Below are positions 2,745 to 60,371 of a stretch of 64,000 nt of DNA, one piece after another (position 1 is the stretch's first letter; every line of letters starts with the position of its first letter). The position numbers were made by a program, and so were the translations under genes. Where the stretch lies: positions 480,001 through 544,000 of the forward strand of contig OY781066.1 in assembly GCA_963676395.1 (NCBI GenBank). Direction: 5' to 3'. Origin of the DNA: a bacterium (lineage in GTDB: Bacteria > Fidelibacterota > Fidelibacteria > Fidelibacterales > Fidelibacteraceae). The notes beneath the pieces were generated by a model. That model saw nothing but the letters and a program-made list of their open reading frames with translations, searched no databases and was not told where the DNA came from.

Positions 2745-3938
2745 TTATTCAATAATTTTTGTTACAACACCGGCACCTACGGTACGACCACCTTCGCGAA
2801 TAGCGAAGCGTAGCTCTTCTTCCATAGCGATCGGTACGATAAGTTCAACTTCAGCTTCGATATTATCGCCGGGCATTACCATTTCAACGCCATCAGGAAG
2901 TTTGATCGAACCGGTCACGTCCGTTGTACGGAAGTAAAACTGAGGACGATAGCCATCCATGAACGGAGTATGACGGCCGCCTTCTTCTTTCTTCAGGACG
3001 TAAAACTTAGCCATGAACTTGGTGTGAGGTGTAATGGATTTCGGCGCTGCGATAACCTGTCCGCGACGCAACCATTCTTTGTCAATTCCGCGTAGCAAAA
3101 GACCTGCGTTATCTCCGGCTTCTCCACGATCCAACAATTTGCGGAACATTTCAACGCCTGTTACAACTGTCTTCTTGCCTTCAGGGTGGATACCCAGGAT
3201 CTCAACTTCTTCTCCGACCTTGATCACACCGCGTTCGATTCTTCCGGTACCTACCGTACCACGACCCGTGATTGAAAATACATCTTCAACCGGCATCAGG
3301 AAGGGTTTGTCTACCGCGCGCTGAGGTTCAGGAATATAATTGTCGACCGCTTCCATCAATTCCATGATGCTTTTGGTCTTTTCCGGATCTGTAGGATTGT
3401 TCAATGCTTCAAGTGCTGAACCTTTGATGATCGGAATGTCATCACCGGGGAAATCATATTCGCTTAAGAGTTCGCGAAGTTCCATTTCTACCAGTTCCAA
3501 CAATTCAGGGTCATCTACCATATCAACTTTGTTCATATAAACAACCATTGAAGGAACGTTAACCTGGTGGGCCAACAGAACATGTTCGCGAGTCTGAGGC
3601 ATAGGGCCGTCAGCTGCGGATACAACCAGAATAGCTCCGTCCATCTGTGCTGCTCCGGTGATCATATTTTTAATATAATCGGCATGTCCGGGACAATCAA
3701 CGTGAGCATAGTGTCTACTCTCTGTTTCATATTCAACGTGAGCGGTGGCAATTGTGATACCGCGTTCGCGTTCTTCTGGTGCGTTGTCAATACTATCGAA
3801 CGAACGAACTTCTGCGCCACCTGCGATAGCCAATACTGAAGTAATAGCTGCCGTCAGTGTCGTCTTACCATGATCTACGTGACCGATCGTTCCTACGTTC
3901 ACGTGCGGTTTAGTACGTTCAAATTTTGCTTTAGCCAT
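2745..3938 (-). CDS. tuf: Elongation factor Tu (str-operon copy)
   Basis: [35 protein letters not shown]; downstream of fusA. Confidence 0.99.
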
Positions 3939-7115: not shown

Positions 7116-10100
7116 TTATTCGACAGGTGCTTCAGTTACTTCTACATTTTCAGCAGGAGCTTCTTCGGGAGCCTGTTCGTCAACGATGGCTTTATCGGGA
7201 ACGGGTAATTCAATTTCTTCAACTTCGGGTTCAATGACTTGAACTCTACGATATTCACTCATACCGGTACCGGCAGGGATCATACGTCCGATGATGATAT
7301 TTTCTTTCAAACCACTCAAATCGTCGATCTTTCCGGAGATAGCTGCGTCAGTAAGAACACGAGTCGTTTCCTGGAATGATGCGGCTGAGAGGAATGATTC
7401 AGTATTCAATGATGCGCGCGTAATACCAAGCAGCAGCGGATCAAAAGTTGCAGGTTTTGCAGCTTTGAATTTCGCAGGGCGCTTTTCGGCAGCTTTATGG
7501 CGAGCATTATCTTCTTTAACGAGATCACGAGGATAAACATTACCTTCGATCAATGATGTATCACCGGCATCGTTGATACATACCATATCAAAGAGTTTTT
7601 CATTCTCGATTTGAACTTCCTGACGACCAACGCGATCTCCAACTAGGAAATCGGTATCGCCCGGATCTTTGATCTCTACCTTCTGCAACATTTGTCGAAC
7701 GATAACTTCGATATGTTTATCGTTGATACGCACACCCTGCAGACGGTAAACGTGCTGAATTTCATTCAAGAGGTGTTTCTGTACTTCTTTCACACCACGG
7801 ATCTTAAGGATCTTACGTGGAGGAATAGCACCGTCACATAGAGGTTCACCTGAACGAACATAATCGCCTTCGTGAACAAGAATGTGTTTACCTTTTGGAA
7901 TTTTATATGTGAAAACTTCACCAAGTTCGTTCGTTACGCGAATAGTTTGAATACCGTGTTGTAATTTATCAAAGCGTACATGACCGTCAACTTCAGAAAC
8001 AACTGCTTCGTTGCTGGGGTTACGAGCTTCAAACAACTCTGATACTCGGGGAAGGCCACCGGTAATATCGTTTGATCTTGCAGATTCTTTTGATCGTTTC
8101 GCCAATGTCTGTCCCTGTACAACTTTATCACCTTCTTTAACGATGATAGATGAGTTTTCGGGAAGCGCAATTGGTTTTCCAACCATCTCGCCGGTTTTAC
8201 CGTTCATAATCGCGATTCGTGCTGTCTTTTCACGGTCTTTAGAGGCGATAATCTGCCATTCCATGTGCCCCGACGAATCGGTCACTTCATCATAAGTAAC
8301 ACCGGGGATCAAGTCGAGGAATTTAACCAAACCATCATAACGGGATACAATGTGTTCATTGTAAGCATCCCAATCATAAAGAATTGAATCGGGGCCGACA
8401 TGATCATCATTATTAACATGAACTTTCGCACCCTGAGGAATGGTATATGTGATCAGATTACGGTTATCATCATCAATGATGGATACCTTACCGTTACGAA
8501 CCAATACAATGTTTAAATCGTTTTCAGAGATCAAGAGGTTATCACTAAACTCTACTCGACCTTTAAAGCGAGCTGTCTGGTGTGATTCCTGGATAATACG
8601 GCTGGCTGTACCACCAATATGGAAAGTACGAAGTGTCAGCTGGGTACCCGGTTCACCAATTGACTGTGCAGCCATAATACCTACAGCCTCACCTGTGTTC
8701 ACCAGTTTATCGGTAGCAAGGTTACGTCCGTAACATTTTGCACAAACACCGGTTTTAGCTTCACAAGTCAATACTGAACGAATGTAAACCGATTCAACAT
8801 TAGAGCTTGCAATTTTTTCAGCAAGTTCTTCATCGACATAAGTATCAACTTCAGCGATAACTTCATCGGTTAAAGGATCGATCACATCTTCTTGCAGAAC
8901 ACGACCAACGATACGTTCTTTGAGGTGCTCAATAATATTTTCGCCTTCTTTCAAAGAGGCAACGCGGATACCGTTAATAGTTCCACAATCAATACTATTG
9001 ATCACAACATCCTGAGATACATCAACCAGACGACGAGTCAAATAACCGGCATCGGCTGTCTTCAACGCTGTATCCGAAAGACCTTTTCGGGCACCGTGAG
9101 TTGAAATAAAGTATTCAAGTACGGTCAAACCTTCTTTAAAGTTCGAGGTAATCGGCGTTTCAATAATATCACCGCCGCCACCACCGGTGTTCTTTTGAGG
9201 TTTGTTCATCAAACCACGCATACCGGCCAACTGTTTGATCTGATCTTTAGATCCACGAGCACCGGAATCGGTCATAATGAATAAGGGGTTAAAACCTTCG
9301 TTATCTTGAACCAGTTTCTTGTTCATTACATTCTGAACAGAATCAGTGGTTTTAGACCAAGCGTCAATAACCTTATTATAACGTTCATTTTCGGTAATGA
9401 TACCGCGTTTACGCTTATCATTGATGTCATTAACGTTTTTTTCGGTTTTTTCAATAATTTCAAATTTATCATCGGGAATGATAACATCACTCAAACCGAT
9501 GGACACACCCGAACGAGTCGCCATTGAGAAACCAAGATTCTTGAGGTCATCAAGAAATTCTACAGTTCTGTTAATGCCAACTTCACGGTTACATTCACCC
9601 ACAATACTTTCAATACGCTTCTTGGTAAGCAATTCATTAAAGTAAGGCATACCTTCAGGAACAATAGAGTTGAAAAGAATTCTTCCAACTGTTGTTTCAA
9701 TGATCTTACCATCAACGGCCAACTTAACCTTTGCATGAAGAGTAACCCATTCATTATCTAAGGCAAGAAGTGCTTCGTCGGCACTATAATAAACCGAGCC
9801 TTCACCGGGCTGATTAGAGCGTGCACGGGTAATATAGTAAGATCCAAGAACCATATCCTGAGAAGGAATAGCAATAGGATGACCGTGTGCAGGGTGAAGA
9901 ATATTATTAGATGCAAGCATCAACATTCTTGATTCGATCTGAGCTTCAAATGATAGCGGTACGTGAACAGCCATCTGGTCACCATCAAAATCAGCGTTAA
10001 ACGCAGAACAAACCAAGGGGTGAATTCTAAGAGCTTTACCGTCAATAAGAATAGGCTGAAAAGCCTGGATACCCAGACGGTGAAGTGTAGGAGCACGGTT

Positions 10101-11444
10101 AAGAAGTACAGGATGATCTTTAACCACGTATTCAAGAAGGCTCATTACCTCCGGATCACGGGCTTCGACCATGCTTTTAGCAACTTTAGCGGTACCTGCT
10201 TTTCCACGAACCAGTAGTTCATGGATCAAATGCGGCTTAAACAGCTCAGTTGCCATCTTCTTGGGAATACCACACTCATGCATACGCAATTCGGGACCCA
10301 CACAAATCACTGAACGAGCAGAATAATCAACACGCTTGCCAAGCAAGTTCTGGCGGAAGCGGCCTTCTTTACCGTTCAGCATATCTGAAAGAGATTTCAA
10401 CGGACGGCGTGTGCCCGAACGGACAGCCGCACGTTTTCTACCGTTATCAAATAGTGAATCAACAGCTTCCTGAAGCATACGCTTTTCGTTACGTAAAATA
10501 ACTTCGGGAGCTTTAATGTCTATCAACTGTTTCAAACGGTTATTTCGAATGATCACGCGACGGTAAAGGTCATTCAAATCCGAAGCTGCGAAGCGGCCAC
10601 CTTCAAGGGGAACCAAAGGACGCAATTCGGGTGGAATAACCGGTAATACCTTCAGGATCATATATTCCGGACGATTGATGGGTTGTTCATCTTCATTCAT
10701 GGTTGTGAATGATTTTAAGATCTTCAAACGTTTTACAATGTCATCACGTTCTGAAACGGATTTTGTATTACGCAGTCTGGTCTTAAGTTCACTTACCAAT
10801 TTTGTTACATCCAGGTCAAGCAAGAGCTCGTACACTGCCTGAGCACCTGTTTTTGCAACGAAGAGATCATCTTCATCAATGGGCTCTTCCGCTTCTTCAC
10901 CATAGGTGTAAAGAAGGTCAAAGTATGTGTCTTCGTCAAGTAGTTCCATAGCTTTTACGGGACGTACTTTACCGTTATCCTCTACTTCGGCTTTTCCGGG
11001 TTGGATCACTACATATGATTCATAGTAAATGATCTGCTCCAGTTCTTTAGCGGCAATACCCAAAACATTCGCAAGTTTTGAAGGAATTGATTTAAGAAAC
11101 CAAATATGAACCACGGGAACGGCCAGGTTAATATGGCCCATACGTTCGCGGCGCACAGATTTGCGGGTAACTTCAACACCGCAACGGTCACAAATAATAC
11201 CTTTGTAACGAATGCGTTTGTATTTACCGCAGTGACATTCCCAATCCTTAACCGGACCAAAGATCTTCTCACAAAACAAACCGTCTTTCTCAGGTTTATA
11301 TGAGCGATAATTGATGGTCTCGGGTTTTAGAACTTCACCGCGGGACTTTTCTAATATCGATTCCGGCGATGACAAGCGGATTTGAATCTGCTGAAAGTCT
11401 TTTTTCGCCGTTTTTTGTTGTAATGTACTCAATGCCAATGTCAT
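7116..11444 (-). CDS. rpoC: DNA-directed RNA polymerase subunit beta'
   Basis: Catalytic NADFDGD, Zn finger CHC...CDRC, AAQSIGEPGTQLTLRTFH. Confidence 0.99.
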   Translation of the reverse strand: MTLALSTLQQKTAKKDFQQIQIRLSSPESILEKSRGEVLKPETINYRSYKPEKDGLFCEKIFGPVKDWECHCGKYKRIRYKGIICDRCGVEVTRKSVRRERMGHINLAVPVVHIWFLKSIPSKLANVLGIAAKELEQIIYYESYVVIQPGKAEVEDNGKVRPVKAMELLDEDTYFDLLYTYGEEAEEPIDEDDLFVAKTGAQAVYELLLDLDVTKLVSELKTRLRNTKSVSERDDIVKRLKILKSFTTMNEDEQPINRPEYMILKVLPVIPPELRPLVPLEGGRFAASDLNDLYRRVIIRNNRLKQLIDIKAPEVILRNEKRMLQEAVDSLFDNGRKRAAVRSGTRRPLKSLSDMLNGKEGRFRQNLLGKRVDYSARSVICVGPELRMHECGIPKKMATELFKPHLIHELLVRGKAGTAKVAKSMVEARDPEVMSLLEYVVKDHPVLLNRAPTLHRLGIQAFQPILIDGKALRIHPLVCSAFNADFDGDQMAVHVPLSFEAQIESRMLMLASNNILHPAHGHPIAIPSQDMVLGSYYITRARSNQPGEGSVYYSADEALLALDNEWVTLHAKVKLAVDGKIIETTVGRILFNSIVPEGMPYFNELLTKKRIESIVGECNREVGINRTVEFLDDLKNLGFSMATRSGVSIGLSDVIIPDDKFEIIEKTEKNVNDINDKRKRGIITENERYNKVIDAWSKTTDSVQNVMNKKLVQDNEGFNPLFIMTDSGARGSKDQIKQLAGMRGLMNKPQKNTGGGGGDIIETPITSNFKEGLTVLEYFISTHGARKGLSDTALKTADAGYLTRRLVDVSQDVVINSIDCGTINGIRVASLKEGENIIEHLKERIVGRVLQEDVIDPLTDEVIAEVDTYVDEELAEKIASSNVESVYIRSVLTCEAKTGVCAKCYGRNLATDKLVNTGEAVGIMAAQSIGEPGTQLTLRTFHIGGTASRIIQESHQTARFKGRVEFSDNLLISENDLNIVLVRNGKVSIIDDDNRNLITYTIPQGAKVHVNNDDHVGPDSILYDWDAYNEHIVSRYDGLVKFLDLIPGVTYDEVTDSSGHMEWQIIASKDREKTARIAIMNGKTGEMVGKPIALPENSSIIVKEGDKVVQGQTLAKRSKESARSNDITGGLPRVSELFEARNPSNEAVVSEVDGHVRFDKLQHGIQTIRVTNELGEVFTYKIPKGKHILVHEGDYVRSGEPLCDGAIPPRKILKIRGVKEVQKHLLNEIQHVYRLQGVRINDKHIEVIVRQMLQKVEIKDPGDTDFLVGDRVGRQEVQIENEKLFDMVCINDAGDTSLIEGNVYPRDLVKEDNARHKAAEKRPAKFKAAKPATFDPLLLGITRASLNTESFLSAASFQETTRVLTDAAISGKIDDLSGLKENIIIGRMIPAGTGMSEYRRVQVIEPEVEEIELPVPDKAIVDEQAPEEAPAENVEVTEAPVE

Positions 11445-11462
11445 TCCTCCTATAGAAGGATA

Positions 11463-14400
11463 TTATACCAAATCCATTTCAATACCCAGACCCTCAAGTT
11501 CCTTCAAGAGAACGTTGAATGATTCGGGTGTTCCGTATTCGGGAAGGTTTTCACCTTTCACGATCGCGTTGTAAATTCGCGTTCTACCGTCAACATCATC
11601 GGATTTGACTGTCAGAACTTCCTGAAGTGTATGCGCGGCACCGTATGCTTCAAGAGCCCAAACCTCCATTTCTCCAAATCTCTGCCCACCAAACTGTGCT
11701 TTACCACCGAGAGGCTGCTGAGTAATCAGAGAATAAGGTCCGGTTGAACGGGCATGCATCTTATCTTCGATCATGTGTGACAATTTCATCATGTATATCT
11801 GGCCACAGGCAACAGGATTATCAATCTTGTTACCGCTGCGTCCATCATACAATGTTTCTTTACCGTTAGCTGGTAAGCCAGCCTCTGTCATCAATTTAGA
11901 GATATCATCGTAAGATGCACCGTCAAATACAGGTGTTTCAAAATGAACACCCAATTCTTTTCCGGCCCAACCCAGCATTGTCTCATAAAGCTGACCAAGG
12001 TTCATACGAGAAGGCACACCCAGAGGATTCAATACGATATCAACGGGAGTTCCATCAGGCAAGAATGGCATATCTTCTTCAGGTACGATAATTGAAACCA
12101 CACCTTTGTTACCGTGGCGACCGGCCATTTTATCACCCACAGAGATCTTTCGCTTACTAGCAATATAAACCTTAGCAAGTTTCAAAACACCCGGTTGCAT
12201 GTCATCACCGGCACGAACTTTAAATTGTTCGTTCTGAACATCTTCTTTGATCTCATCATCGATCTTCTGGAAGTTTTCAACCAGTTTCAAAACGCGTGCA
12301 TACACTTCTTCATCGTTAACCCATGCTTTTTCGAGATCAATCTCGTCAAAGTCAACAGTTTCGAAAAATTCCCAGTTCCATGTCTTGCGTTTTGCATGAA
12401 CAGCATTGCCACCTTTGTTATAAATACCTTCGCAGGCTTGGCCTTCAAGAAGGTTCTGTAACTTAGCGATAAATTTATTGCGATGAATGATGAGTCTTTC
12501 AGCCAACTGTTTTGCAAGCTTTTCGAGTTTCTCTTTTTCATCGCGACGTGATTCTTTACCCTTGCGTTCAAACAAACGAGTATCGATAACCACACCATTG
12601 GTTGATGGGTCAGCTCGTTTTGAAGCATCCTTAACGTCGCCGGCCTTTTCACCAAAGATCGCCCTAAGAAGTTTTTCTTCGGGTGTAGGATCGGTTTCAC
12701 CTTTCGGTGTTACCTTACCAATGATGATATCGCCATGAGTAACGGGAGCACCGATACGAACGATACCGTTTTCATCAATATTTCTTGTAGCTTCTTCGGA
12801 AACGTTGGGGATTTCACGGGTCAATTCTTCAGAACCGCGTTTTGTATCACGGACTTCGAGTTCAACTTCTTTCACATGAACAGAGGTTAAAATATCTTCT
12901 TTAACCAATCGTTCATTAAGAATGATAGCATCCTCGTAGTTATATCCGCGCCAAGGCATAAATGCAACCAATACGTTACGGCCAAGTGCCAATTCACCCT
13001 GGTCGGTTGATGTACCGTCAGCAATGGGTTCGCCGGCTTTGACCTTTTGGTTCTTCCGAACGATAGGACGTTGGTTGATCGATGTATCTTGGTTTGTTCT
13101 TTGAAATTTCTTCAAATTAAAGACCACACGGCCTTCATTTTCATCCAATGAAACGTCAGCATCGAAATCTTCCAGCGGACGAAGCACGATCTTTCGTGCA
13201 TCCACATATTCGACAATGGCGTTAATGGGTGATGTGACAACGGCACGAGAATCGCGAGCTGCATCAGGTTCCATACCTGTACCGACGATCGGGGCCTTCG
13301 GTGTTAGCAGCGGAACTGACTGACGTTGCATATTTGAACCCATCAATGCACGGTTGGCATCATCGTGTTCCAAGAATGGGATCAAAGCCGCAGCGGCTGA
13401 AACCATTTGGATCGGCGAAACGTCCATGTAGTTGACATTTTCAGGAGATGAAATTGGATAATCAGCCTGATGACGACATTTAACATGGTCTAACTGGAAT
13501 TCATTTTTGTCTGTCAGTAACGCATTGGCCTGTGCGATCGTGTTACGATCTTCATCATCGGCAGATAGGTATTCTACGGATGCCGATACGCGTGTACCGT
13601 TTTTATTGTGGTTGACCTTCCTATATGGTGTTTCGATGAAACCCAAACGGTTGACGACTGCATAGTTCGCCAATGAAGAGATCAAACCAATATTGGGACC
13701 TTCAGGGGTTTCAATCGGACAGAGACGGCCATAATGAGTATAATGCACATCTCGAACCTCAAAACCTGCACGTTCACGAGTCAAACCTCCCGGACCTAGA
13801 GCTGACAAACGACGTTTGTGAGTCAATTCGGCCAAAGGATTCGTTTGGTCCATAAACTGTGACATCTGTGAGGTACCAAAGAAAGTATTGATCACTGAGG
13901 TAAGAATACGAGAGTTGATCAATTCCTGAGGTGTTAGATTTTCCGCATTGTGAATGTTCATACGATCTTTAATAGTACGAGACATACGAGTAAAAGCCAA
14001 TGAGAACTGGTTAGCCAGCTGTTCACCAACAGTTTTAACGCGACGGTTACCCAAATGATCGATATCATCAGACGCCTTTTCACCTCGACGCATCGAGATA
14101 AGCTGTTCGACAATCATCACAAAATCTTCAGGTGCAATCACGGTATTTTCAAGCGGAAGATCCAGATTGAATTTTTTATTCATGCGATAACGACCGACCT
14201 GACCCAGATCATATTTCTTAGGTGAGAAGAAAAGTTTCTCAAAGAATTTCTGAGCAGTGTCAACATTGGGCGGCTCGCCATTTCGCAAGTTACGATATAG
14301 ATAGATCAATGCTTCATCGGCTGTCGGTTCGCGTTCTTCTTCATCAGAGATACCGATCTTATCGCGTTCACGACGAATAGAATTAGCAAGAAGTTTAAAA

Positions 14401-15278
14401 TCCACTTCGCGGTCGAGATCTACAACTTCTAGATTCTTAACCTTAGCTTTCTTTAGCTCTCCGATCAGCTTTTCATCAAGAATGATCTGTTGATCTTCAG
14501 ACGTCCCCGCATTTAAAATGACTTCGCCACTTTTATTATCGATAATAGGAGTAACGACCATGCGTCCTTCCAGGTCACCGGTAATGGGAAGAGTTTCCAA
14601 TACTTTGAATTGCTGAAGAATATCATAATTTGTTTCAAAACCGATAGCGCGCAAGAAAATCGAAACCGGAAATTTTTTCCGGCGATCGATCGTTACATAG
14701 ATCGCATCGAAAATATCGGTGGTAAGGTCAACCCATGAACCACGCATCGGGATAATACGAGCGTTATATAATACGGTTCCGTTGGGATGCCGGGCATCAT
14801 TAAAAAACACACCGGGTGAACGCTGTAGCTGAGATACAATAATACGTTCGGCGCCGTTAATGATAAAAGTACCGCGTGGGGTCATATAAGGGATATTACC
14901 AAAGAATACATCTTGTTCAACCGTATCGGCAAGAGCCGGATTGTCAGAATCTTCTTCAGCAACCTTAAGCACCAATTTTGCCTTTAAAGGCACTGAATAG
15001 GTAATGCCTCGTTCGACACATTCCTGTTCTTCGTAACGAGGTTTTCCGATCGTATAATACTTATATTCTAAAACGAATGTATCGTGATTATCTTCGATCG
15101 GAAAGATGGTACGGAATACATTTTCAAGACCTAAGTCCTGACGATTTCTTGGACGCACGCGGGTTTGAAGAAAATCTTCAAACGAGCTTAACTGAACATC
15201 CAAAAGATCCGGGGTATCAAGAACTTGCTTGATCTTGGAAAAAGATGTCCGTTTGATCTTTCTTTTGATACTAGCCAA
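11463..15278 (-). CDS. rpoB: DNA-directed RNA polymerase subunit beta (TTG start)
   Basis: SQFMDQTNPL...THKRRLSALGPGG, GDKMAGRHGNKG, GGQRFGEME. Confidence 0.99.
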   Translation of the reverse strand: MASIKRKIKRTSFSKIKQVLDTPDLLDVQLSSFEDFLQTRVRPRNRQDLGLENVFRTIFPIEDNHDTFVLEYKYYTIGKPRYEEQECVERGITYSVPLKAKLVLKVAEEDSDNPALADTVEQDVFFGNIPYMTPRGTFIINGAERIIVSQLQRSPGVFFNDARHPNGTVLYNARIIPMRGSWVDLTTDIFDAIYVTIDRRKKFPVSIFLRAIGFETNYDILQQFKVLETLPITGDLEGRMVVTPIIDNKSGEVILNAGTSEDQQIILDEKLIGELKKAKVKNLEVVDLDREVDFKLLANSIRRERDKIGISDEEEREPTADEALIYLYRNLRNGEPPNVDTAQKFFEKLFFSPKKYDLGQVGRYRMNKKFNLDLPLENTVIAPEDFVMIVEQLISMRRGEKASDDIDHLGNRRVKTVGEQLANQFSLAFTRMSRTIKDRMNIHNAENLTPQELINSRILTSVINTFFGTSQMSQFMDQTNPLAELTHKRRLSALGPGGLTRERAGFEVRDVHYTHYGRLCPIETPEGPNIGLISSLANYAVVNRLGFIETPYRKVNHNKNGTRVSASVEYLSADDEDRNTIAQANALLTDKNEFQLDHVKCRHQADYPISSPENVNYMDVSPIQMVSAAAALIPFLEHDDANRALMGSNMQRQSVPLLTPKAPIVGTGMEPDAARDSRAVVTSPINAIVEYVDARKIVLRPLEDFDADVSLDENEGRVVFNLKKFQRTNQDTSINQRPIVRKNQKVKAGEPIADGTSTDQGELALGRNVLVAFMPWRGYNYEDAIILNERLVKEDILTSVHVKEVELEVRDTKRGSEELTREIPNVSEEATRNIDENGIVRIGAPVTHGDIIIGKVTPKGETDPTPEEKLLRAIFGEKAGDVKDASKRADPSTNGVVIDTRLFERKGKESRRDEKEKLEKLAKQLAERLIIHRNKFIAKLQNLLEGQACEGIYNKGGNAVHAKRKTWNWEFFETVDFDEIDLEKAWVNDEEVYARVLKLVENFQKIDDEIKEDVQNEQFKVRAGDDMQPGVLKLAKVYIASKRKISVGDKMAGRHGNKGVVSIIVPEEDMPFLPDGTPVDIVLNPLGVPSRMNLGQLYETMLGWAGKELGVHFETPVFDGASYDDISKLMTEAGLPANGKETLYDGRSGNKIDNPVACGQIYMMKLSHMIEDKMHARSTGPYSLITQQPLGGKAQFGGQRFGEMEVWALEAYGAAHTLQEVLTVKSDDVDGRTRIYNAIVKGENLPEYGTPESFNVLLKELEGLGIEMDLV

Positions 15279-15306: not shown

Positions 15307-15340
15307 AAAACAAAGAGAGCCATCGCGTAGGTGACGGCTC
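15307..15340 (-). terminator. Attenuator-like hairpin between rplL and rpoB
   Basis: Minus: GAGCCGTCAC-CTAC-GCGATGGCTC-TCTTTGTTTT (imperfect stem); same position as the known rplL-rpoB attenuator of E. coli. Confidence 0.6.
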
Positions 15341-15374: not shown

Positions 15375-15755
15375 TTACTTAAGTTCTACAGTAGCTCCGA
15401 CTTCTTCTAATTTTGTTTTAATTTCTTCTGCACTGTCTTTAGGCAATTGCTCTTTAACAGCTACAGGAGCGCTTTCAACCAATTCTTTGGCTTCTTTTAG
15501 GCCTAAACCGGTCAATTCGCGAACAACTTTAATGACGTTGATCTTCTTTTCGCCAAAGCTCTGAAGCATCACATCAAATTCAGTTTTTTCTTCTTCAGCG
15601 GCAGCAACGGGTGCAGCACCGGCAGCAGCTACAGCTACGGGAGCGGCGGCTGTTACACCAAATTTTTCTTCGATCTCTTTAATGAGTTCTGAGATTTCCA
15701 GCATGTTTGCTGTTTCCAAGTATGCTAATACATCGGCACGTTTGATATCGGCCAT
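15375..15755 (-). CDS. rplL: 50S ribosomal protein L7/L12
   Basis: [10 protein letters not shown] hinge, [24 protein letters not shown]. Confidence 0.99.
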
Positions 15756-15791
15756 GATAATCCTCCTTTAATTTCTGAGGGTTTTTTTATG

Positions 15792-16319
15792 TTATTGTTT
15801 TGTTTCTTCTAATGATTTCAATAGACCCTGTACATCACGCATAGGTGATTGCAAGCAACCAAGAACCTTCTGCATCGGTGATTGAAGAGCTCCAAGCAAC
15901 ATAGAAAGAAGTACTTCTTTTGAAGGTAGGTCAGCAATCTGATCAACCTTACTTTTGTCGCATAGTTCGCCCTGAAAGATCAATGCCTTAACATCAGGTT
16001 TTTTAAGATCCTTCATTTTCTTTTTGTAATCTTGCAGGATCTTAGCGGGTGCTACGGGATCTTCACCATAAACAAGAGCGGTTGAGCCGGTGAGGAAATC
16101 TTCTTTCTTCACTTCTTCATAACCTAAGTCTTGCAATGCTCGCAGGATAAGAGTGTTCTTAACAACCTGCATCTTGACATCTTTTTCAAAGAGTTCCGAA
16201 CGGAGCTCATTTACTTCTGCCACAGTAAGGCCAAGATAATCTGAAAAGTAAACAGCACCTGCTGCTTGAATCTTTTCTGTTATTTCTTTAACCTGTTCAA
16301 TTTTTTTCGGGGTTGGCAT
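15792..16319 (-). CDS. rplJ: 50S ribosomal protein L10
   Basis: DYLGLTV, VVKNTL, LPSKEVL; ATG at 16319 fits AGGAGG spacing better than GTG at 16325. Confidence 0.95.
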   Translation of the reverse strand: MPTPKKIEQVKEITEKIQAAGAVYFSDYLGLTVAEVNELRSELFEKDVKMQVVKNTLILRALQDLGYEEVKKEDFLTGSTALVYGEDPVAPAKILQDYKKKMKDLKKPDVKALIFQGELCDKSKVDQIADLPSKEVLLSMLLGALQSPMQKVLGCLQSPMRDVQGLLKSLEETKQ

Positions 16320-16332
16320 ATTCACAAACCTC

Positions 16333-17025
16333 CTAAGCTAATGCAGATTGTTTATCAATTTTAACACCAGGGCCCTGTGTTGAGGAAAGGGTAATCTTTT
16401 TAAGATAAGTACCTTTCAAGGCCGTGGGTTTTAATTTCATTACCGTACTCATCATCCCTTTTACATTTTCTTCAAGCTGTTCAACTGAAAAAGATGCTTT
16501 ACCAACTAAAACATGGAGTATTCCATATTTGTCAACACGGAAAGAGATCTTACCGGCTTTGGCTTCATTTACCGCCTGAGCAACATCTTGTGTTACCGTA
16601 CCTGTTTTAGGATTAGGCATTAAACCACGTGTACCTAAGGCACGACCCAGTTTTCCAACGTGACGCATCACATCGGGTGTTGCTATACAGACATCAAAAT
16701 CAAACCAACCACCTTCGATTTGTTTGACATATTCTTCCAAACCCGCATAATCTGCACCGGCTTCTTCTGCTTCTTTTACTTTCTCACCTTGAGTTAGTAC
16801 AAGAACACGAACTTTCTTACCGGTTCCATGAGGGAGAATGACTGTACCACGAATATTTTGATCAGCATATCGAGGATCAACACCAAGATTTAGTGTCAAT
16901 TCAACTGATTCGTCGAACTTGGCGTTAGCAGCTTGTTTTATCAAACTTACACCGTCGGCAAGAGCGTATTCACGTGTCTTGTCAACCAGTCCCTCATTTG
17001 CCGAATATCGCTTACTATGATTCAT
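16333..17025 (-). CDS. rplA: 50S ribosomal protein L1
   Basis: KFDESVE, LPHGTGK, LGTRGLMPNPKTGTVT; start at MNHSKRY with GGAGG RBS. Confidence 0.97.
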   Translation of the reverse strand: MNHSKRYSANEGLVDKTREYALADGVSLIKQAANAKFDESVELTLNLGVDPRYADQNIRGTVILPHGTGKKVRVLVLTQGEKVKEAEEAGADYAGLEEYVKQIEGGWFDFDVCIATPDVMRHVGKLGRALGTRGLMPNPKTGTVTQDVAQAVNEAKAGKISFRVDKYGILHVLVGKASFSVEQLEENVKGMMSTVMKLKPTALKGTYLKKITLSSTQGPGVKIDKQSALA

Positions 17026-17041
17026 TAATTCTTGCCTCCAG

Positions 17042-17467
17042 TTAACCTTCAACCTTTAATCCCATGCTTCGAGCGGTTCCTGCAATCATTCGCGCGGCCT
17101 GTTCGATGGTATGGGCGTTTAAATCTTTCATTTTCAACTTGGCAATTTCTTCAAGATCGGCCTGTGTTACCGTACCAACTTTTTCTTTATTCGATACGCC
17201 AGAACCTTTTTCGATCTTTGCTGCTTTTTTAAGCAAAACGGCTGCAGGGGGTGTCTTTGTAACAAATGTAAAGGACCTATCTGCATATACCGTGATCACT
17301 ACCGGAATGATCAAGCCCATTTGATCTTGGGTCTTAGCATTATAAGCTTTACAGAATTCCATAATATTCACACCGTGCTGACCGAGTGCCGGACCGACGG
17401 GAGGTGACGGGTTTGCCTTACCCGCAGGAAGCTGTAGTTTGATCAATGCTTCTACTTTTTTTGCCAT
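17042..17467 (-). CDS. rplK: 50S ribosomal protein L11
   Basis: [34 protein letters not shown]. Confidence 0.99.
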
Positions 17468-17500
17468 ACTACTTTTACCATTTTTTTGGTTTTATCGTTC

Positions 17501-18028
17501 TTATTTCTCTTTTTCTACTTGAAGGTAGTCCAATTCAACCGGCGTTGAACGCCCGAAAATACTGACCATTACCTTCAACTTGCGCTTTTCTTCATTAACT
17601 TCTTCGACTACACCGGAAAAATCAACAAAGGGACCGTCAACCACCTTAACAGGTTCACCTACATTAAAAGGTGTCGCCATCACTTCGCGTCCGTCTTTCT
17701 TTTCAACTTCGCCAAGAATTCTTGCGACTTCTTTCTCTGTAAGAACCTGGGGAACACCCTTCGAACCGACGAAACTAATTACGCCGGAGATGTTCTCAAC
17801 AAAATATTTGGTTTCCGCAGACACATCCATCTTAATCATAATGTAACCGGGGTAGAAAACCTTTACCCGGGTACGTTTTTTCCCGTCTCGCATTTCCACT
17901 ACGTTTTCAGTGGGAACCAAGACGTTTTCGATGGATTCAGCAAATCCGCAAGCTTCAGCTTCGAACATAATGCGTTCTGCAACCGCTCTTTCTTTTCCGG
18001 ACAATGCTTTCAGGGTATACCATTTCAT
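17501..18028 (-). CDS. nusG: Transcription termination/antitermination factor NusG
   Basis: WY...SGKE, YPGYIM, KOW VKVVDGPF, VSIFGRSTPVEL. Confidence 0.98.
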   Translation of the reverse strand: MKWYTLKALSGKERAVAERIMFEAEACGFAESIENVLVPTENVVEMRDGKKRTRVKVFYPGYIMIKMDVSAETKYFVENISGVISFVGSKGVPQVLTEKEVARILGEVEKKDGREVMATPFNVGEPVKVVDGPFVDFSGVVEEVNEEKRKLKVMVSIFGRSTPVELDYLQVEKEK

Positions 18029-18032
18029 TGTA

Positions 18033-18230
18033 TTACATCCATTCGATTAATTTTGCGACGAGGGTACCAACACCCATGTCAACGATTGCGATGAACAGAG
18101 TGATAAGGATCGAAAAGATCAAAACCACACCCGTTGAGGATCTCAATTCATCCCAAGAAGGCCAATTTACCTTCTTCATTTCATAGCGAACTCCGCTAAA
18201 AAACTCTTTTATTCTGTCAAACAATTTCAT
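18033..18230 (-). CDS. secE: Preprotein translocase subunit SecE
   Basis: EMKKVNWPSWDEL plus one TM helix; between tRNA-Trp and nusG. Confidence 0.96.
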   Translation of the reverse strand: MKLFDRIKEFFSGVRYEMKKVNWPSWDELRSSTGVVLIFSILITLFIAIVDMGVGTLVAKLIEWM

Positions 18231-18252
18231 TCTTTTGTCCTCGTTTGTCTTG

Positions 18253-18325
18253 CAGGCCAGGAGGGATTCGAACCCCCAACTTGCGGTTTTGGAGACCGCT
18301 GCTCTGCCAGTTGAACTACTGGCCT
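18253..18325 (-). tRNA. tRNA-Trp (CCA)
   Basis: Cloverleaf AGGCCAG...GCGGT-CTCCAAA-ACCGC...GTTCGAATC...CTGGCCT-G; 3' CCA not encoded. Confidence 0.97.
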
Positions 18326-18334
18326 GACACTATT

Positions 18335-18499
18335 TTAGCGTGTTTCTTTATGATTTGTATGCTTTTGGCACCACGGGCAGTACTTTTTATATTCCACGCG
18401 TTGAGGATGTAAGCGTTTATTCTTTGTCGTAGTATAATTACGACGTTTACATTCCTCGCATGCCAAAATGATGTTATTGCGTATTTTTTGTCCTGCCAT
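18335..18499 (-). CDS. rpmG: 50S ribosomal protein L33, Zn-binding C+ form (54 aa; not in ORF track)
   Basis: Manual translation [54 protein letters not shown]; CxxC...CxxC; canonical tuf-rpmG-trpT-secE position. Confidence 0.97.
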
Positions 18500-18521
18500 T
18501 GTACTCTAGCCTTTAATCTTA

Positions 18522-19715
18522 TTATTCAATAATTTTTGTTACAACACCGGCACCAACTGTACGACCACCTTCACGAATGGCGAAGCGTAGTTCTTCTTCC
18601 ATTGCGATTGGTACGATAAGTTCTACATCAGCTTCAATATTATCGCCGGGCATTACCATCTCTACACCGTCAGGTAACTTAATTGAACCTGTCACGTCTG
18701 TTGTACGGAAGTAGAACTGTGGGCGATATCCATCCATAAATGGAGTGTGACGTCCGCCTTCTTCTTTCTTCAATACGTAGAATTTGGCTTTGAATTTTTT
18801 GTGAGGAGTTATTGATTTAGGTGCTGCGACAACCATTCCGCGACGCAACCATTCTTTATCAATACCACGAAGCAATAAACCAGCATTGTCACCGGCTTCT
18901 CCGCGATCTAACAGCTTACGGAACATTTCCACTCCCGTACATACTGTCTTCTTACCTTCTTCGTCGATACCTACGATCTCTACTTCATCACCTACCGTGA
19001 TAACTCCACGTTCGATTCTTCCGGTTCCTACGGTACCGCGACCTGTAATTGAAAATACATCTTCAACAGGCATCAAGAATGGTTTGTCGATGGCACGTTC
19101 CGGTTCTGCAATATATGAATCTACAGCTTCCATCAATTCTATAATGCTTTTTGTCTTTTCTGCATCATCAGGATTGTTCAAGGCTTCCAAAGCTGAACCT
19201 TTAATGATTGGAATGTCATCACCGGGGAAATCATATTCGCTCAACAATTCGCGTAGTTCCATTTCTACCAGTTCCAACAACTCAGGATCATCAACCATAT
19301 CTACTTTGTTCATATAAACAACGATATAAGGTACGTTAACCTGATGTGCCAATAGAACGTGTTCACGTGTCTGTGGCATAGGACCGTCTGCAGCTGATAC
19401 TACCAAAATCGCACCATCCATCTGGGCTGCTCCGGTGATCATATTTTTAATATAATCGGCATGTCCCGGACAATCAACGTGGGCATAGTGTCTGCTCTCT
19501 GTTTCGTATTCAACGTGAGCGGTGGCAATTGTGATACCACGTTCGCGTTCTTCAGGTGCATTATCAATACTGTCAAAAGAACGAACTTCAGCGCCGCCAG
19601 CTTTTGCCAATACTGTTGTAATTGCAGCTGTCAATGTTGTTTTACCATGATCCACGTGACCTATCGTTCCGACGTTCACGTGGGGTTTAGTACGTTCAAA
19701 TTTTTCTTTAGCCAT
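18522..19715 (-). CDS. tuf: Elongation factor Tu (tRNA-operon copy)
   Basis: Same EF-Tu motifs; preceded by Thr-Tyr-Gly-Thr tRNAs. Confidence 0.99.
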
Positions 19716-19761
19716 CGTAGTATTCTCCTATAGAGTTTTACTTTAACTTAATTTTCAATTG

Positions 19762-19835
19762 AGCCCTTGACCGGATTTGAACCGGTGACCTCATCCTTAC
19801 CAAGGATGCGCGACTACCGACTGTGCTACAAGGGC
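19762..19835 (-). tRNA. tRNA-Thr (GGT)
   Basis: GCCCTTG...CATCC-TTGGTAA-GGATG...GGTTCAAATCC...CAAGGGC-T. Confidence 0.95.
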
Positions 19836-19837
19836 AT

Positions 19838-19876
19838 AAAAAAAGCCCATAACCGAAAACATGCGATTACAGGCTT
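19838..19876 (-). terminator. Intrinsic terminator-like hairpin inside the tRNA operon (candidate attenuator)
   Basis: Minus: AAGCCTGTAATCG-CATGTTTT-CGGTTATGGGCTT-TTTTT; 13-bp stem with G-U pairs, ending 2 nt before tRNA-Thr(GGT). Confidence 0.65.
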
Positions 19877-19956
19877 AATTAGCTTGCGGCGTGTTTTCTG
19901 GTGCATACGAGCTTTACATTTACAAAGCTCTCCCAGGTCTCTGCCAAAATTTCAAG

Positions 19957-20027
19957 AGCGAGTGATGAGAATCGAACTCACATAGTCAGCTTGGAAGGCT
20001 GATGTTCTACCATTGAACTACACTCGC
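19957..20027 (-). tRNA. tRNA-Gly (TCC)
   Basis: GCGAGTG...TCAGC-CTTCCAA-GCTGA...GTTCGATTC...CACTCGC-T. Confidence 0.96.
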
Positions 20028-20068
20028 GGCACGAGTGCCAAGTTCATATGATCTCAACACACGCAATG

Positions 20069-20151
20069 TGGGCCAGGATGGATTTGAACCACCGTAGACT
20101 TCCGTCGTCAGATTTACAGTCTGATGCCATTGACCACTCGGCCACTGACCC
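20069..20151 (-). tRNA. tRNA-Tyr (GTA)
   Basis: GGGTCAG...TCAGA-CTGTAAA-TCTGA, long variable arm, GGTTCAAATCC, CTGGCCC-A. Confidence 0.96.
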
Positions 20152-20165
20152 ATTTTATTGTGCGG

Positions 20166-20238
20166 AGCCTCTAGCCGGAGTCGAACCAGCGACCAACGGT
20201 TTACAAAACCGTCGCTCTACCATCTGAGCTATAGAGGC
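20166..20238 (-). tRNA. tRNA-Thr (TGT)
   Basis: GCCTCTA...ACGGT-TTTGTAA-ACCGT...GGTTCGACTCC...TAGAGGC-T. Confidence 0.96.
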
Positions 20239-20259
20239 TTGTGTTTCAAAAAGCCAAGA

Positions 20260-20287
20260 AATATAAGAAATAATTCGAGATGTGCAA
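20260..20287 (-). promoter_or_regulatory. Putative sigma70 promoter of the tRNA-tuf operon
   Basis: Minus TTGCAC-16 nt-TATATT about 21 nt upstream of tRNA-Thr(TGT), with AT-rich upstream region. Confidence 0.5.
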
Positions 20288-20553
20288 ATAGTTTATCGCA
20301 ATTTTTTAAATATTTTTTCATCAGACAAAGCTTTAAATATGATAGAATCACTAATAATATCTAATCCTTAGCGGTATACAAAAATATCCATTAATCCGAT
20401 CTGAATTTCGTGTTTGAATTTTGATTTATTACTTAATCAAAATTCTTCAATCAAGATCGAGATGCATCATTTATAACTCGATATTAAAATTTGCTTATTC
20501 AATTGTTCGATTGCAGTTTCCATCGTCCTCTCCTCCACTCTCCACTCATCTTC

Positions 20554-21003
20554 TCAATGTTCAACACTCATTTTCTTTCGCGCTAATGCATTCTCCCAGC
20601 GTCTCTTTTGATCTTCGCTTTCAGGTGTCAACTTAGGCACTTCAATAGGATTCCCTTTATCACACATGGCAACCATTGTAAAGTAACAGGAAATACTATG
20701 TCGTTTGGTATTGCTTTTAAGGTCTTCGGCAATCACTTTTATACCAACCTCCATAGATGTTCTACCGGTATAATTAACCGAAGCATAAAATGTAACAAGC
20801 TCGCCAACATTTATGGGTTTTTTAAATAGTACCTTATCAACACTTAGAGTTACTACATAACATCCGGCATATCTGGCTGCACATGCGTAGGCAGTTTCGT
20901 CCATAAGTTTTAACATCTGACCTCCATGAACCTTTCCTGAGAAGTTCGTCATATCCGGGGTCATCAGCTTGGTCATTTCGAGCGTTGGTTTGCGATTGTT
21001 CAT
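20554..21003 (-). CDS. Acyl-CoA thioesterase (hotdog fold, YciA/BFIT-like)
   Basis: NFSGKVHGGQMLKLMDE, VTLSVDKVLFKKP, TGRTSMEVG, YFTMVA. Confidence 0.9.
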   Translation of the reverse strand: MNNRKPTLEMTKLMTPDMTNFSGKVHGGQMLKLMDETAYACAARYAGCYVVTLSVDKVLFKKPINVGELVTFYASVNYTGRTSMEVGIKVIAEDLKSNTKRHSISCYFTMVAMCDKGNPIEVPKLTPESEDQKRRWENALARKKMSVEH

Positions 21004-58270: not shown

Positions 58271-60371
58271 AACCATTCATGTTGCACTTGCGGGAAATCC
58301 CAATTCGGGGAAAACATCAATATTTAATGCTCTCGCGGGCACCAATCAAAAAGTCGGAAACTTCTCAGGAGTCACGGTAGAAAAAGTTGAAGGATCTTTT
58401 AAATATAAAGATTATACGATCCGATTGATCGATCTGCCCGGCACATATAGCTTATCCCCCTACAGTCCGGAAGAAAAAGTTGCTCGTGATTATATTATAA
58501 ATGAGAAACCCGATATGGTCGTTAACATTGTTGACGCTACCAATTTGGAACGTAATCTTGTTCTCACCACTCAACTAATGGATTTGGAAGTCGAACTCCT
58601 TGTTGTCATGAACATGTTCGATGAAATAAAAAAACAAAACATCCACATAGATCTGAATCAATTTGAGCAATTGTTCGGCGCTCATGTCATTCCTGCCTCT
58701 GCAGTTACAAAAGAAGGTATCGAGGATCTTCTGGAGCATATTATCCAGATCAAGGCCGGTGAGATCGAGACTAAAAAATATAAACATACCTACACTGAAA
58801 ATATTGAAAATGATATTGTTGAATTATCTCAACTCATTGAAGATAGAAAGATCTCACAAAATTTGCCTACACGTTGGATGGCGATCAAAATAATTGAAAA
58901 TGATAAAGATGTGGTTAAAATTCTATCCTCCCACCCCTGTTGGCGGGAAATAGAAGAAAAATATCATACCATTAAATATCGAATATATAAGCTTCATCAA
59001 GGGAAAGAACCCAATGTATATTTAAGTGAAGAACGCATAGCTTTTATCAATGGCGCCATTCATGAAACAGTTACTTTCCCAGAAGATGAGCCTGAATCAC
59101 TCACCGAAAAGATTGATAATGTTTTACTCCATCGTTTTTTAGGTTTACCTATCTTTCTTCTGGTCATGTATACCATTTTTCAGTTGACCTTCCGCCTTGG
59201 CGAGTATCCCATGCAATGGATCGATGGACTATTTCAGGCCCTGACACTTTGGCTGGATAAGATTATTCCGGCATCTATGTTCAAATCCATCTTACTTGAT
59301 GGTATTATCGCCGGTGTTGGTGGTGTATTGGTATTCTTGCCTAACATCCTGATACTGTTTTTATGTATTTCAATACTTGAAGCCACGGGTTATATGGCTC
59401 GCGTTGCCTTTGTAGTCGATAAACTCATGCATCGCATTGGCTTACACGGAAAATCTTTCATCCCCATGATCACAGGTTTTGGCTGCACCGTACCGGCGAT
59501 CATGGCCGCTAGAACACTCCGGAACAAGGGTGACAGGCTTACGACCATGATGGTGGTTCCTTTCTTTTCCTGTGGTGCAAAGCTTCCGGTATATACTGTA
59601 ATCATTTCAGCGTTTTTTGCTCCGGCTATCGCCGGGAATGTCCTGTTCGGTATCTACTTGTTCGGTGTATTTATTGGATTACTTTCGGCAAAGCTCCTAC
59701 GTAAAGCAGCATTTAAAGATGAATCTGAGCCTTTCGTAATGGAACTACCCCCATATCGAAAACCCTCGGGTAGCTCTATGGTCAAACAAACCTGGAATCG
59801 CGCACGAATGTACATTCGCAAAGCGGGAACGGTCATACTTCTTGCCAGTATTATTATTTGGTTTGCTGGTACCTATCCCAAGCAAATAGATGTGACAAAA
59901 AAATATGAAAGATTACAAAGCGTAGAAAATATAGATCTTGATTCACTTGCAAGGCTAGAGCGTGCAGAACAACTCCCCTATTCAATAGCCGGAAGATTGG
60001 GAAACGCTCTTGAACCGCTTATGAGACCTTTGGGGTTTGATTGGCGTTTAAATATTGCTTTGATAAATGGATTAGCGGCTAAAGAGATCGTTGTTTCCAC
60101 CATGGGAACAATATTTGCCATCGGTGATACAGAAGAAGATAGTCACACACTTGCAGAATCACTTCGAAATGATCCTGCATACTCGCAAGCTGTAGGTTTA
60201 TCGTTCATGGTCTTTGTCCTACTCTATATTCCTTGTATCGCCTCAGTTGCCGTTTTCCGCTCGGAAAGCAATTCAAGAAAATGGACATTTATTTTTGTTG
60301 CATATACTATAACTGTCGCTTGGATAGCGTCCTTTGCTGTATTCAATATCGCAAAACTCTTTGGATTATAA
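58263..60371 (+). CDS. feoB: Ferrous iron transport protein B
   Basis: GNPNSGKT, GVTVE, DLPG, NMFD, GFGCTVPA, CGAKLPVY, AKEIVV, LYIPC. Confidence 0.97.
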   Translation: MNKTIHVALAGNPNSGKTSIFNALAGTNQKVGNFSGVTVEKVEGSFKYKDYTIRLIDLPGTYSLSPYSPEEKVARDYIINEKPDMVVNIVDATNLERNLVLTTQLMDLEVELLVVMNMFDEIKKQNIHIDLNQFEQLFGAHVIPASAVTKEGIEDLLEHIIQIKAGEIETKKYKHTYTENIENDIVELSQLIEDRKISQNLPTRWMAIKIIENDKDVVKILSSHPCWREIEEKYHTIKYRIYKLHQGKEPNVYLSEERIAFINGAIHETVTFPEDEPESLTEKIDNVLLHRFLGLPIFLLVMYTIFQLTFRLGEYPMQWIDGLFQALTLWLDKIIPASMFKSILLDGIIAGVGGVLVFLPNILILFLCISILEATGYMARVAFVVDKLMHRIGLHGKSFIPMITGFGCTVPAIMAARTLRNKGDRLTTMMVVPFFSCGAKLPVYTVIISAFFAPAIAGNVLFGIYLFGVFIGLLSAKLLRKAAFKDESEPFVMELPPYRKPSGSSMVKQTWNRARMYIRKAGTVILLASIIIWFAGTYPKQIDVTKKYERLQSVENIDLDSLARLERAEQLPYSIAGRLGNALEPLMRPLGFDWRLNIALINGLAAKEIVVSTMGTIFAIGDTEEDSHTLAESLRNDPAYSQAVGLSFMVFVLLYIPCIASVAVFRSESNSRKWTFIFVAYTITVAWIASFAVFNIAKLFGL

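Follow-up and report, generated by a model that had tools for sequence, protein, structure and literature searches.

Introduction

Autoregulation by ribosomal protein L1 is textbook translational feedback, exerted at the start site of rplK or rplA. Here, we describe an element that resembles the sensor of this feedback and lies in the 120-nucleotide (nt) spacer between the genes for tRNA-Gly(UCC) and tRNA-Thr(GGU), at positions 19836-19955 (minus strand) of a 64,000-nt stretch of a Fidelibacteraceae genome (contig OY781066.1 of assembly GCA_963676395.1, forward-strand positions 480,001 to 544,000), which is called the window below. The spacer holds a hairpin that looks like an L1-binding site, an antiterminator and an intrinsic terminator, and we consider it probable that it is an L1-responsive transcription attenuator that gates tRNA-Thr, tuf, rpmG, tRNA-Trp, secE, nusG, rplKAJL and perhaps rpoBC.

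Described L1 sites directly precede rplK or rplA and act on translation, as is the case for the Escherichia coli rplK leader, the dual sites before rplK and rplA in Firmicutes, and the archaeal L1 operon (PMC3616713). Features common to the spacer and such an operator are GGGAG in the 5' strand, a G-A pair and, after it, an unpaired A, a hairpin that is closed by G-C and free in length, a C-G-N5-A-CC 3' strand, and mimicry of the L1 stalk of 23S rRNA. It differs in being located in a gap between two tRNA genes, with no start codon nearby, and in being coupled to an antiterminator and an intrinsic terminator; the Clostridia L1 sites that we examined are located 5-20 nt before the Shine-Dalgarno sequence or ATG and have no terminator.

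Attenuators that depend on ribosomal proteins have been described in Bacillus subtilis, where L20 acts on the infC leader (PMC1865079) and L10(L12)4 on the rplJL leader (PMC4538822). The principle proposed here is the same, namely a ribosomal protein that controls its own operon through attenuation of transcription in the leader, whereas the protein and the sensor RNA are different and the B. subtilis leaders directly precede the operon that they regulate. The switch described here is instead located inside a tRNA operon, and would gate tRNAs, EF-Tu, SecE and NusG as well.

Another system occupies the same locus, thrT-tuf behind a tRNA cluster: tufB of Salmonella is reportedly autoregulated through alternative RNA structures around thrT, in a manner that is Rho-dependent and senses EF-Tu. 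In contrast, the element described here has an intrinsic terminator and an L1-type sensor. The glyT-thrT spacer of E. coli K-12 is 6 nt long and therefore contains no homologous element. Literature searches, conducted mostly outside subscription journals, revealed no L1 site that is linked to a terminator or situated between tRNA genes. An earlier note on this DNA, made from the sequence alone, had called the element an undescribed attenuator; for this place and this wiring that description stands within the searches made, and no Rfam family matches the element.

A putative sensor hairpin, an antiterminator and a terminator share the spacer

The minimum free energy (MFE) fold of the spacer consists of a GGC/GCC stem, a CUGG/CCAG stem, an 8-base-pair (bp) hairpin and a 13-bp terminator. 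The hairpin domain and the terminator that the earlier note had read from the sequence are thus seen again, in this fold and in a terminator scan. The intrinsic terminator (19838..19876, minus strand) has a 13-bp stem (19876-19843), an 8-nt loop and seven U residues (19844-19838), and its U-run finishes 2 nt before tRNA-Thr(GGU). The sensor hairpin P1/P2, a look-alike of the L1-binding site, is located upstream of it (19898..19936, minus strand). It is made up of P1, in which CUGG (19936-19933) pairs with CCAG (19901-19898), a GA bulge (19932-19931), the G-C-closed hairpin P2 (19930-19909) and the 3' junction GUAUGCA (19908-19902). The outer GGC/GCC stem (P0), which had been proposed as part of the same domain, occurs only in one genus (g1) and never varies, and hence provides no evidence either way.

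A model alignment of 20 sequences (A2) was used to count the base pairs of the OFF structure, which comprises P1, P2 and the terminator. In this alignment 98.7% of the cells are paired, versus 24-45% when the partners are slid against each other. Nine pairs have changed on both sides, four of the five in P2 and five of the 11 modelled terminator pairs.

The alternative pairing of GAAAACACGC (19898-19889) with GCAUGUUUUC (19864-19855), on which the idea of a switch was originally built, is present and extends by ACC/GGU. The antiterminator defined in this way pairs spacer positions 54-67 with 92-104. Its 5' strand, ACCAGAAAACACGC (19889..19902, minus strand), overlaps the 3' strand of P1 (55-58), and its 3' strand, GCAUGUUUUCGGU (19852..19864, minus strand), overlaps the terminator (92, 101-104), where it takes in one base at the end of the 5' arm, the loop, and four bases at the start of the 3' arm. 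As the antiterminator encloses the terminator 5' arm (80-92) and abuts the 3' arm (101-113) without a linker, the two structures cannot coexist, and the mutual exclusion claimed for them follows directly from the geometry of the overlap.

The complementarity has been kept in every lineage, in that ACCAG and 5-13 further bases can pair with the terminator loop and the start of the 3' arm, though both sides differ between the lineages. The 5' and 3' strands are ACCAGAAAACA.GC and GC.UGUUUUCGGU in genus g1, ACCAGAAA and UUUCUGGU in g2, CCAGGAAACA and UGUUUCUUGA in g3, ACC.GGAC.UAAA.AGG and CCU.UUUA.GUCCGGU in g4, and ACCAGA.GCAU.C and G.AUGC.UCUGGU in g5. The duplex has an energy of -9.8 to -15.6 kcal/mol in all 20 sequences, and for seven lineage representatives a shuffled 5' segment does as well in only 0-7 out of 500 cases. 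Strands taken from the same lineage pair with a mean energy of -13.0 kcal/mol, versus -8.2 kcal/mol for pairs made across lineages. In g3, g4 and g5 each of the two strands pairs best with its own partner; this does not apply within g1 and g2, whose strands are alike. These shuffle and cross-lineage controls are independent of the structure-fitted alignment. Duplex energies and a model-fitted alignment were used for the antiterminator in place of a column-by-column count on A2, in which the genera differ in register by one bulged A. In the alignment fitted to the ON structure, a fit that leans towards the structure, the antiterminator has 12 pairs with 92% of the cells paired and five pairs changed on both sides, and the slid controls for the ON structure as a whole give 31-45% paired. 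Across the orthologous glyT-thrT spacers, compensatory changes are thus found in P2, in the terminator and in the antiterminator, and the architecture of sensor stem, antiterminator and terminator that had been put forward is supported by covariation in five genera.

The order in which the structures can form was approached by folding transcripts of different lengths. When the transcripts are cut just past the 3' strand of the antiterminator, the MFE structure holds the antiterminator in seven of the seven representatives, and it is 2.3-10.7 kcal/mol better than the best fold in which P1 is forced. The MFE structure of the full-length transcripts holds the terminator, again in seven out of seven. 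By our own conversion, an energy gap of 2-11 kcal/mol is estimated to be of the order of a binding event of 25-50 nM, the dissociation constant given in PMC3616713.

The sensor hairpin resembles the L1-binding operator

According to the published description, L1-interacting RNA is a stem whose internal bulge contains a possible G-A pair with an unpaired A after it (Fu et al. 2013, PMC3616713). An operator of this type is expected to be bound by L1 with nanomolar affinity and to lose the binding when G is changed to A, for which the same paper describes an assay. The alignment in supplement 3 of that paper has the form GGGGAG-stem-loop-stem-CG-N4-5-ACCC, and its E. coli rows read CGGGGAGCCUC UCA GAGGCGUUAUUACCCA. 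The sensor in the window reads CUGGGAG AGCUUUGU AAAU GUAAAGCU CGUAUGCACCAG. The earlier statement that no known ribosomal-protein leader consensus could be recognised must therefore be revised, since the hairpin carries the published consensus of L1-interacting RNA (PMC3616713). The fit extends to details: G24 of the spacer faces A54 and A25 is unpaired, as in the description of a G-A pair with an unpaired A.

The letters that are invariant in the alignment of the spacers from the window's class are GGGAG, the C that closes P2, and ACCAG, with a P2 loop that is free. GGGAG is found in 19 of the 20 class sequences, and locus L044 has GGAAG in its place. In all 20 sequences P2 is closed by a G-C pair (columns 25-46); the four pairs beside it covary, and the loops are 4-10 nt long. 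The 3' junction is 7 nt long in 18 of the 19 class loci found with the pattern described below (5 nt in L054); it begins with G in 16 of them and with A in three, and the ACC after it is invariant. The junction of the E. coli operator, GTTATTA, is also 7 nt long. The L1 stalk of the genome's own 23S rRNA, the position of which was located with a motif that we take to mark it, reads GGUGGGAGACU...AGUC...ACCACC and has the same GGGAG and ACC frame as the sensor.

We next compared the hairpin with L1 sites from other bacteria, using a pattern of our own (GGGAG, a P2 with three or more bp and a closing G-C pair, a junction of 4-8 nt whose last letter is A, then CC, and a P1 with three or more bp). 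This pattern recovers the operator of E. coli K-12, 17 nt before the rplK start, and, in Clostridia-type loci, sites that precede rplA by 46-62 nt and by 502-751 nt. These Clostridia-type sites are located before rplA and before rplK, in agreement with what PMC3616713 reports for Firmicutes. The spacer hairpin is matched in 19 of the 20 class loci. A covariance model (R2) was then built solely from 35 distinct Clostridia-type rplK/rplA L1 sites. When the 2.34-Mb genome is searched with R2, the spacer hairpin ranks first with 23.6 bits and an E value of 0.01, which is a rough figure, and the next match has 16 bits and an E value of 1.4; the hairpin is also first in the window with the filters off. 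R2 matches 18 of the 20 class loci (12.6-28.3 bits), and a filter-free search of 40 loci from 24 other families of the phylum (139 kb, tuf to rplA) gave one weak match of 12.9 bits. No further L1-like site was found in the window, nor before rplK or rplA in 18 out of 18 close loci.

The view that the spacer belongs to no known riboswitch or T-box class holds, as Infernal searches against Rfam yielded tRNAs only, at E values of up to 10 in positions 17500-21000 and at the gathering score in the whole window, and thus no riboswitch, T-box or leader. Of the effectors that the earlier note had listed, a ribosomal protein is the one favoured by the sensor match, and nothing points to EF-Tu, a nucleotide or tRNA processing.

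Two other interpretations of the spacer were discarded. The string CUGGGAGAGC resembles that of a tRNA D-loop and D-stem, but a tRNA remnant is rejected because neither ARAGORN nor the tRNA model detects a tRNA there, and it is further contradicted by GAGC in the spacer, which pairs downstream and not upstream. Attenuation by a leader peptide was dropped, because an ATG-led frame is present in some spacers but not in L002. We also observed that CTGGGAGAGCACCGGTCTCCAAAACCGG, present in four loci of other phyla (L085, L089, L165 and L166), satisfies the L1 pattern. Judged by the context of its CCA anticodon, this sequence looks like the D-arm and anticodon arm of tRNA-Trp, and would be a source of false positives in searches for L1 sites.

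Strong matches to the element are confined to one class

The tRNA-tuf stretch was run by BLAST against 40 relatives and ARAGORN was applied to 30 loci, which gave 23 loci with both tRNA-Gly(UCC) and tRNA-Thr(GGU). The spacer measures 104-120 nt in all 14 of these loci that belong to the window's class (genera g1, g2, g3, g4 and g5). In the nine loci from other families of the phylum it measures 3, 6, 28, 38, 47, 49 or 54 nt, or 496 and 627 nt; the inserts of 496-627 nt at the Gly-Thr position are found in L022 and L026.

A covariance model of the whole spacer (R1) finds a single copy in the window's genome (112.6 bits; the next match has an E value of 0.15). The class, a single order of Candidatus Neomarinimicrobiota (Marinimicrobia), is represented by 35 genomes, 21 of which have an R1 match. 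Twenty of the matches are strong (57-122 bits, one copy per genome), and the genomes that bear the element span five genera. The remaining match within the class (G004, 38 bits) was rejected because the motif is absent. A match is found in 13 of the 16 class genomes that are at least 90% complete, and the class genomes without a match are fragmented assemblies. Of the 18 closest loci with the L1 gene, 14 begin 687-1582 nt before rplA, and the four that reach ~2.9 kb upstream all carry the element. The contig breaks ~1.1-1.6 kb upstream of rplA in many metagenome-assembled genomes of the relatives are probably due to the second tuf copy. Among 151 genomes sampled from the phylum, only those of the class have strong R1 matches. 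Weak matches in ten genomes outside it (E 0.002-0.07) are regarded as chance, since they do not have GGGAG/ACCAG and are carried by the terminator half, and a match in L057, at the 3' end of an open reading frame (ORF), was likewise rejected as chance.

Genes and signals around the spacer

The coordinates of the tRNA genes were confirmed; all features below are on the minus strand. Three tRNA genes are located upstream of the terminator (together 19956..20238), encoding tRNA-Thr(UGU) (20164-20238), tRNA-Tyr(GUA) (20068-20151) and tRNA-Gly(UCC) (19956-20027). They are separated by spacers of 12 nt (Thr-Tyr) and 40 nt (Tyr-Gly), so that the Gly-Thr spacer is indeed far longer than the others of the operon, as had been noted, although its length is 120 nt and not the 121 nt (19836..19956) given before. 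The first gene past the terminator is the single genomic copy of tRNA-Thr(GGU) (19761-19835). It is followed by tuf (18522-19715), rpmG (18335-18499), the single-copy gene for tRNA-Trp (18252-18325), secE (18033-18230), nusG (17501-18028), rplK (17042-17467), rplA (16333-17052), rplJ (15792-16325) and rplL (15375-15755), and, behind a terminator-like hairpin, by rpoB and rpoC (7116..15278). All the protein genes that the earlier note had named downstream of the spacer are among those identified.

The string from tuf to rplL (15375..19715) is tightly packed, and the intergenic gaps from tRNA-Thr(GGU) through rplL are 0-45 nt; that between nusG and rplK is 33 nt and that between rplA and rplJ 7 nt. 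The latter leaves no room for the widespread L10 leader before rplJ, and at the gathering score no Rfam ribosomal leader was found anywhere in the 64-kb window. The gene rplA is part of the same gap-free gene string as tuf, and no terminator-like site is located between the spacer terminator and rplA. The next terminator-like hairpin on this strand detected in the terminator scan is at 15340-15317, between rplL and rpoB, and a strong one is found after rpoC (7096-7068). The hairpin at 15317-15340 is an 8-bp structure inside the 96-nt rplL-rpoB gap, a position that presumably corresponds to that of the classical rplL-rpoB attenuator of other bacteria. The window contains two full-length EF-Tu genes, one behind rpsL-rpsG-fusA (2745-3938) and one behind the tRNA cluster (18522-19715), the starts of which are 88% identical at the DNA level.

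A promoter-like site is found 20 nt upstream of the first tRNA gene (20259..20288). It is a match to consensus only, and fits both a sigma-70-like pattern and TTTG-N19-TAnnTTT, the count of the latter in the window being at chance level (19 vs 15.9). Consensus-only scans gave no promoter-like match between tRNA-Gly and tuf (19955-19716). Since the sole genes for tRNA-Thr(GGU) and tRNA-Trp are located behind the terminator, either this terminator is less than fully efficient or there is an unseen promoter. A conserved 5' flank, UUUG(G/A)(C/A)A (19942..19949, alignment columns 6-13), is kept 6-10 nt after tRNA-Gly in all five genera and lies outside every covarying helix; it may serve in processing or as a -7-like promoter box.

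Discussion

A switch that responds to L1 would operate as follows. The nascent RNA would first form the hairpin that mimics the L1 site of 23S rRNA, consisting of P1 (CUGG/CCAG), the G-A bulge and the G-C-closed P2. When free L1 is scarce, the 3' strand of P1 and the bases that follow it (ACCAGAAAAC...) would pair with the terminator loop and the first bases of its 3' arm (GUUUUCGGU), so that without L1 the antiterminator would win during transcription. The terminator would then be blocked, and the polymerase would read into tRNA-Thr(GGU), tuf, rpmG, tRNA-Trp, secE, nusG, rplK, rplA, rplJ, rplL and probably rpoBC. When L1 exceeds free rRNA, it would bind and lock P1/P2 and keep ACCAG in P1, depriving the antiterminator of its 5' strand; with the antiterminator lost, the 13-bp terminator would form and transcription would stop 2 nt before tRNA-Thr. 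The direction of control would be negative feedback, as in all known L1 operators. We infer that L1 binds the spacer, that its binding favours termination, that the downstream genes depend on read-through, and that transcription continues as far as rplA.

Two metatranscriptome contigs of relatives, obtained in one study, run from tRNA-Gly across the spacer into tRNA-Thr, and one continues to the start of tuf. They are a contig of 340 nt from X12, which covers 19751-20027, and one of 319 nt from X18, which covers 19686-20012. Their compatibility with read-through gives the proposed switch weak support. A further contig from X18, in which tRNA-Thr is joined to tRNA-Gly with the spacer skipped, was taken to come from another organism.

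Several observations speak against an L1-responsive attenuator, or weaken the case for it. First, assembled RNA contigs display neither 3' ends nor levels, the libraries from which they derive can hold DNA, and the parts that they leave uncovered carry no meaning. Second, the fold of the single sequence is not significant (its MFE is -33.7 and the mean of the shuffles -28.4, z -1.53), and 15 of the 200 shuffled sequences do equally well; it is by its conservation and covariation in relatives that the element is lifted above chance. Third, P1 is nearly invariant, with three of its four pairs never varying, and its support is accordingly one of conservation and not of covariation. Fourth, the L1 motif is small: the genome has six matches to the pattern, versus 3-12 in ten Markov simulations, and a lone occurrence thus proves nothing. 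Fifth, the sites from which R2 was trained had been gathered with our own pattern. R2 is also a narrow model, which misses L044 (with its GGAAG) and L049 among the 20 class loci, as well as the experimentally defined operator of E. coli, the latter probably because of its 3-nt loop. Its second-best match in the window (58909-58936, minus strand, 20.1 bits, GUGGGAG...ACCAC) has no P2 and is antisense within an ORF of 702 amino acids, and was rejected as chance. Sixth, unlike every described L1 operator, the site precedes rplK by ~2.4 kb and six genes (tRNA-Thr, tuf, rpmG, tRNA-Trp, secE and nusG). Finally, a plain GC-rich, terminator-like hairpin with a U-run and no sensor is found in the 47-54 nt Gly-Thr spacers of other families (L016, L017 and L024). 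In those families the downstream genes can therefore be expressed by some route, perhaps from an unrecognised promoter, and the terminator at the Gly-Thr position may be older than the L1 sensor.

These sensor-less hairpins also favour an alternative that we regard as unlikely, namely that the terminator in the spacer is plain, leaky or constitutive and serves to end the Thr-Tyr-Gly transcript. In that case thrT-tuf-...-rplKA would be transcribed from a promoter missed by the scans, and the L1-like hairpin would be a decoy, or an element that stabilises or processes the excised spacer RNA. The scans being consensus-only, a promoter could have gone unseen, and the semi-conserved UUUG just past tRNA-Gly resembles the last four letters of what we take to be the Bacteroidetes-type -7 promoter box. 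However, no promoter-like match is present in 19955-19716, and a plain terminator gives no account of the complementarity that a segment overlapping the P1 3' strand has retained to the loop and 3' arm of the terminator, even though the two sides differ from genus to genus, nor of the preference for the antiterminator in the truncated transcripts of all seven lineages.

It is quite improbable, in our view, that the terminator/antiterminator switch is real while its sensor binds another ligand, such as EF-Tu, NusG, an RNase or a small molecule, with the L1 likeness being coincidental. The brevity of the motif, for which a loose pattern gives about six chance occurrences per genome, and the modest R2 scores leave room for such a coincidence, and the first products encoded downstream are tRNA-Thr and then EF-Tu, not L1. 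Yet the letters that stay fixed throughout the five genera coincide exactly with the L1 consensus (GGGAG, the closing G-C, the 7-nt junction ending in A, and CC), the hairpin loop is free in both length and sequence, and rplA belongs to the same gap-free gene string. A variable loop of 4-10 nt and a single small internal loop would, moreover, leave little room for a small-molecule pocket, and no riboswitch, T-box or leader of Rfam matches even at the permissive threshold used. That there is no switch, the spacer being conserved for tRNA 3'/5' processing and the alternative pairing being a by-product of A/U-rich sequence, is scarcely credible: the non-significant single-sequence fold and the structure-fitted origin of the antiterminator counts would agree with it, but the shuffle and cross-lineage controls do not use that alignment, pairing drops to 45% or less with slid partners, and the other two tRNA spacers of the operon are only 12 and 40 nt long.

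An L1-responsive attenuator thus remains the reading that we favour, and a more far-reaching version of it can be put forward tentatively, although we are inclined to doubt it. One L1 switch in a tRNA spacer might be the master valve of a transcription-translation super-operon of ~12.7 kb in this Marinimicrobia class. Free L1 would then control how strongly two essential single-copy tRNAs, one EF-Tu copy, L33, SecE, NusG, L11, L1, L10 and L7/L12 and, by read-through, beta and beta' are transcribed, and the switch would take the place of the L1 and L10 translational operators that are separate in other bacteria.

In summary, the spacer is a compact candidate for a protein-responsive attenuator (~105 nt), in which an L1-binding motif has apparently been re-used as the sensor of an intrinsic-terminator switch. 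The proposed switch would account for the fact that a terminator before essential single-copy genes need not be lethal. It would also illustrate how uncultured phyla that yield no Rfam leader can rewire the feedback of ribosomal proteins. The apparent relocation of the sensor to a tRNA operon would make the supply of tRNAs, EF-Tu, NusG and, possibly, RNA polymerase depend on the status of ribosome assembly.

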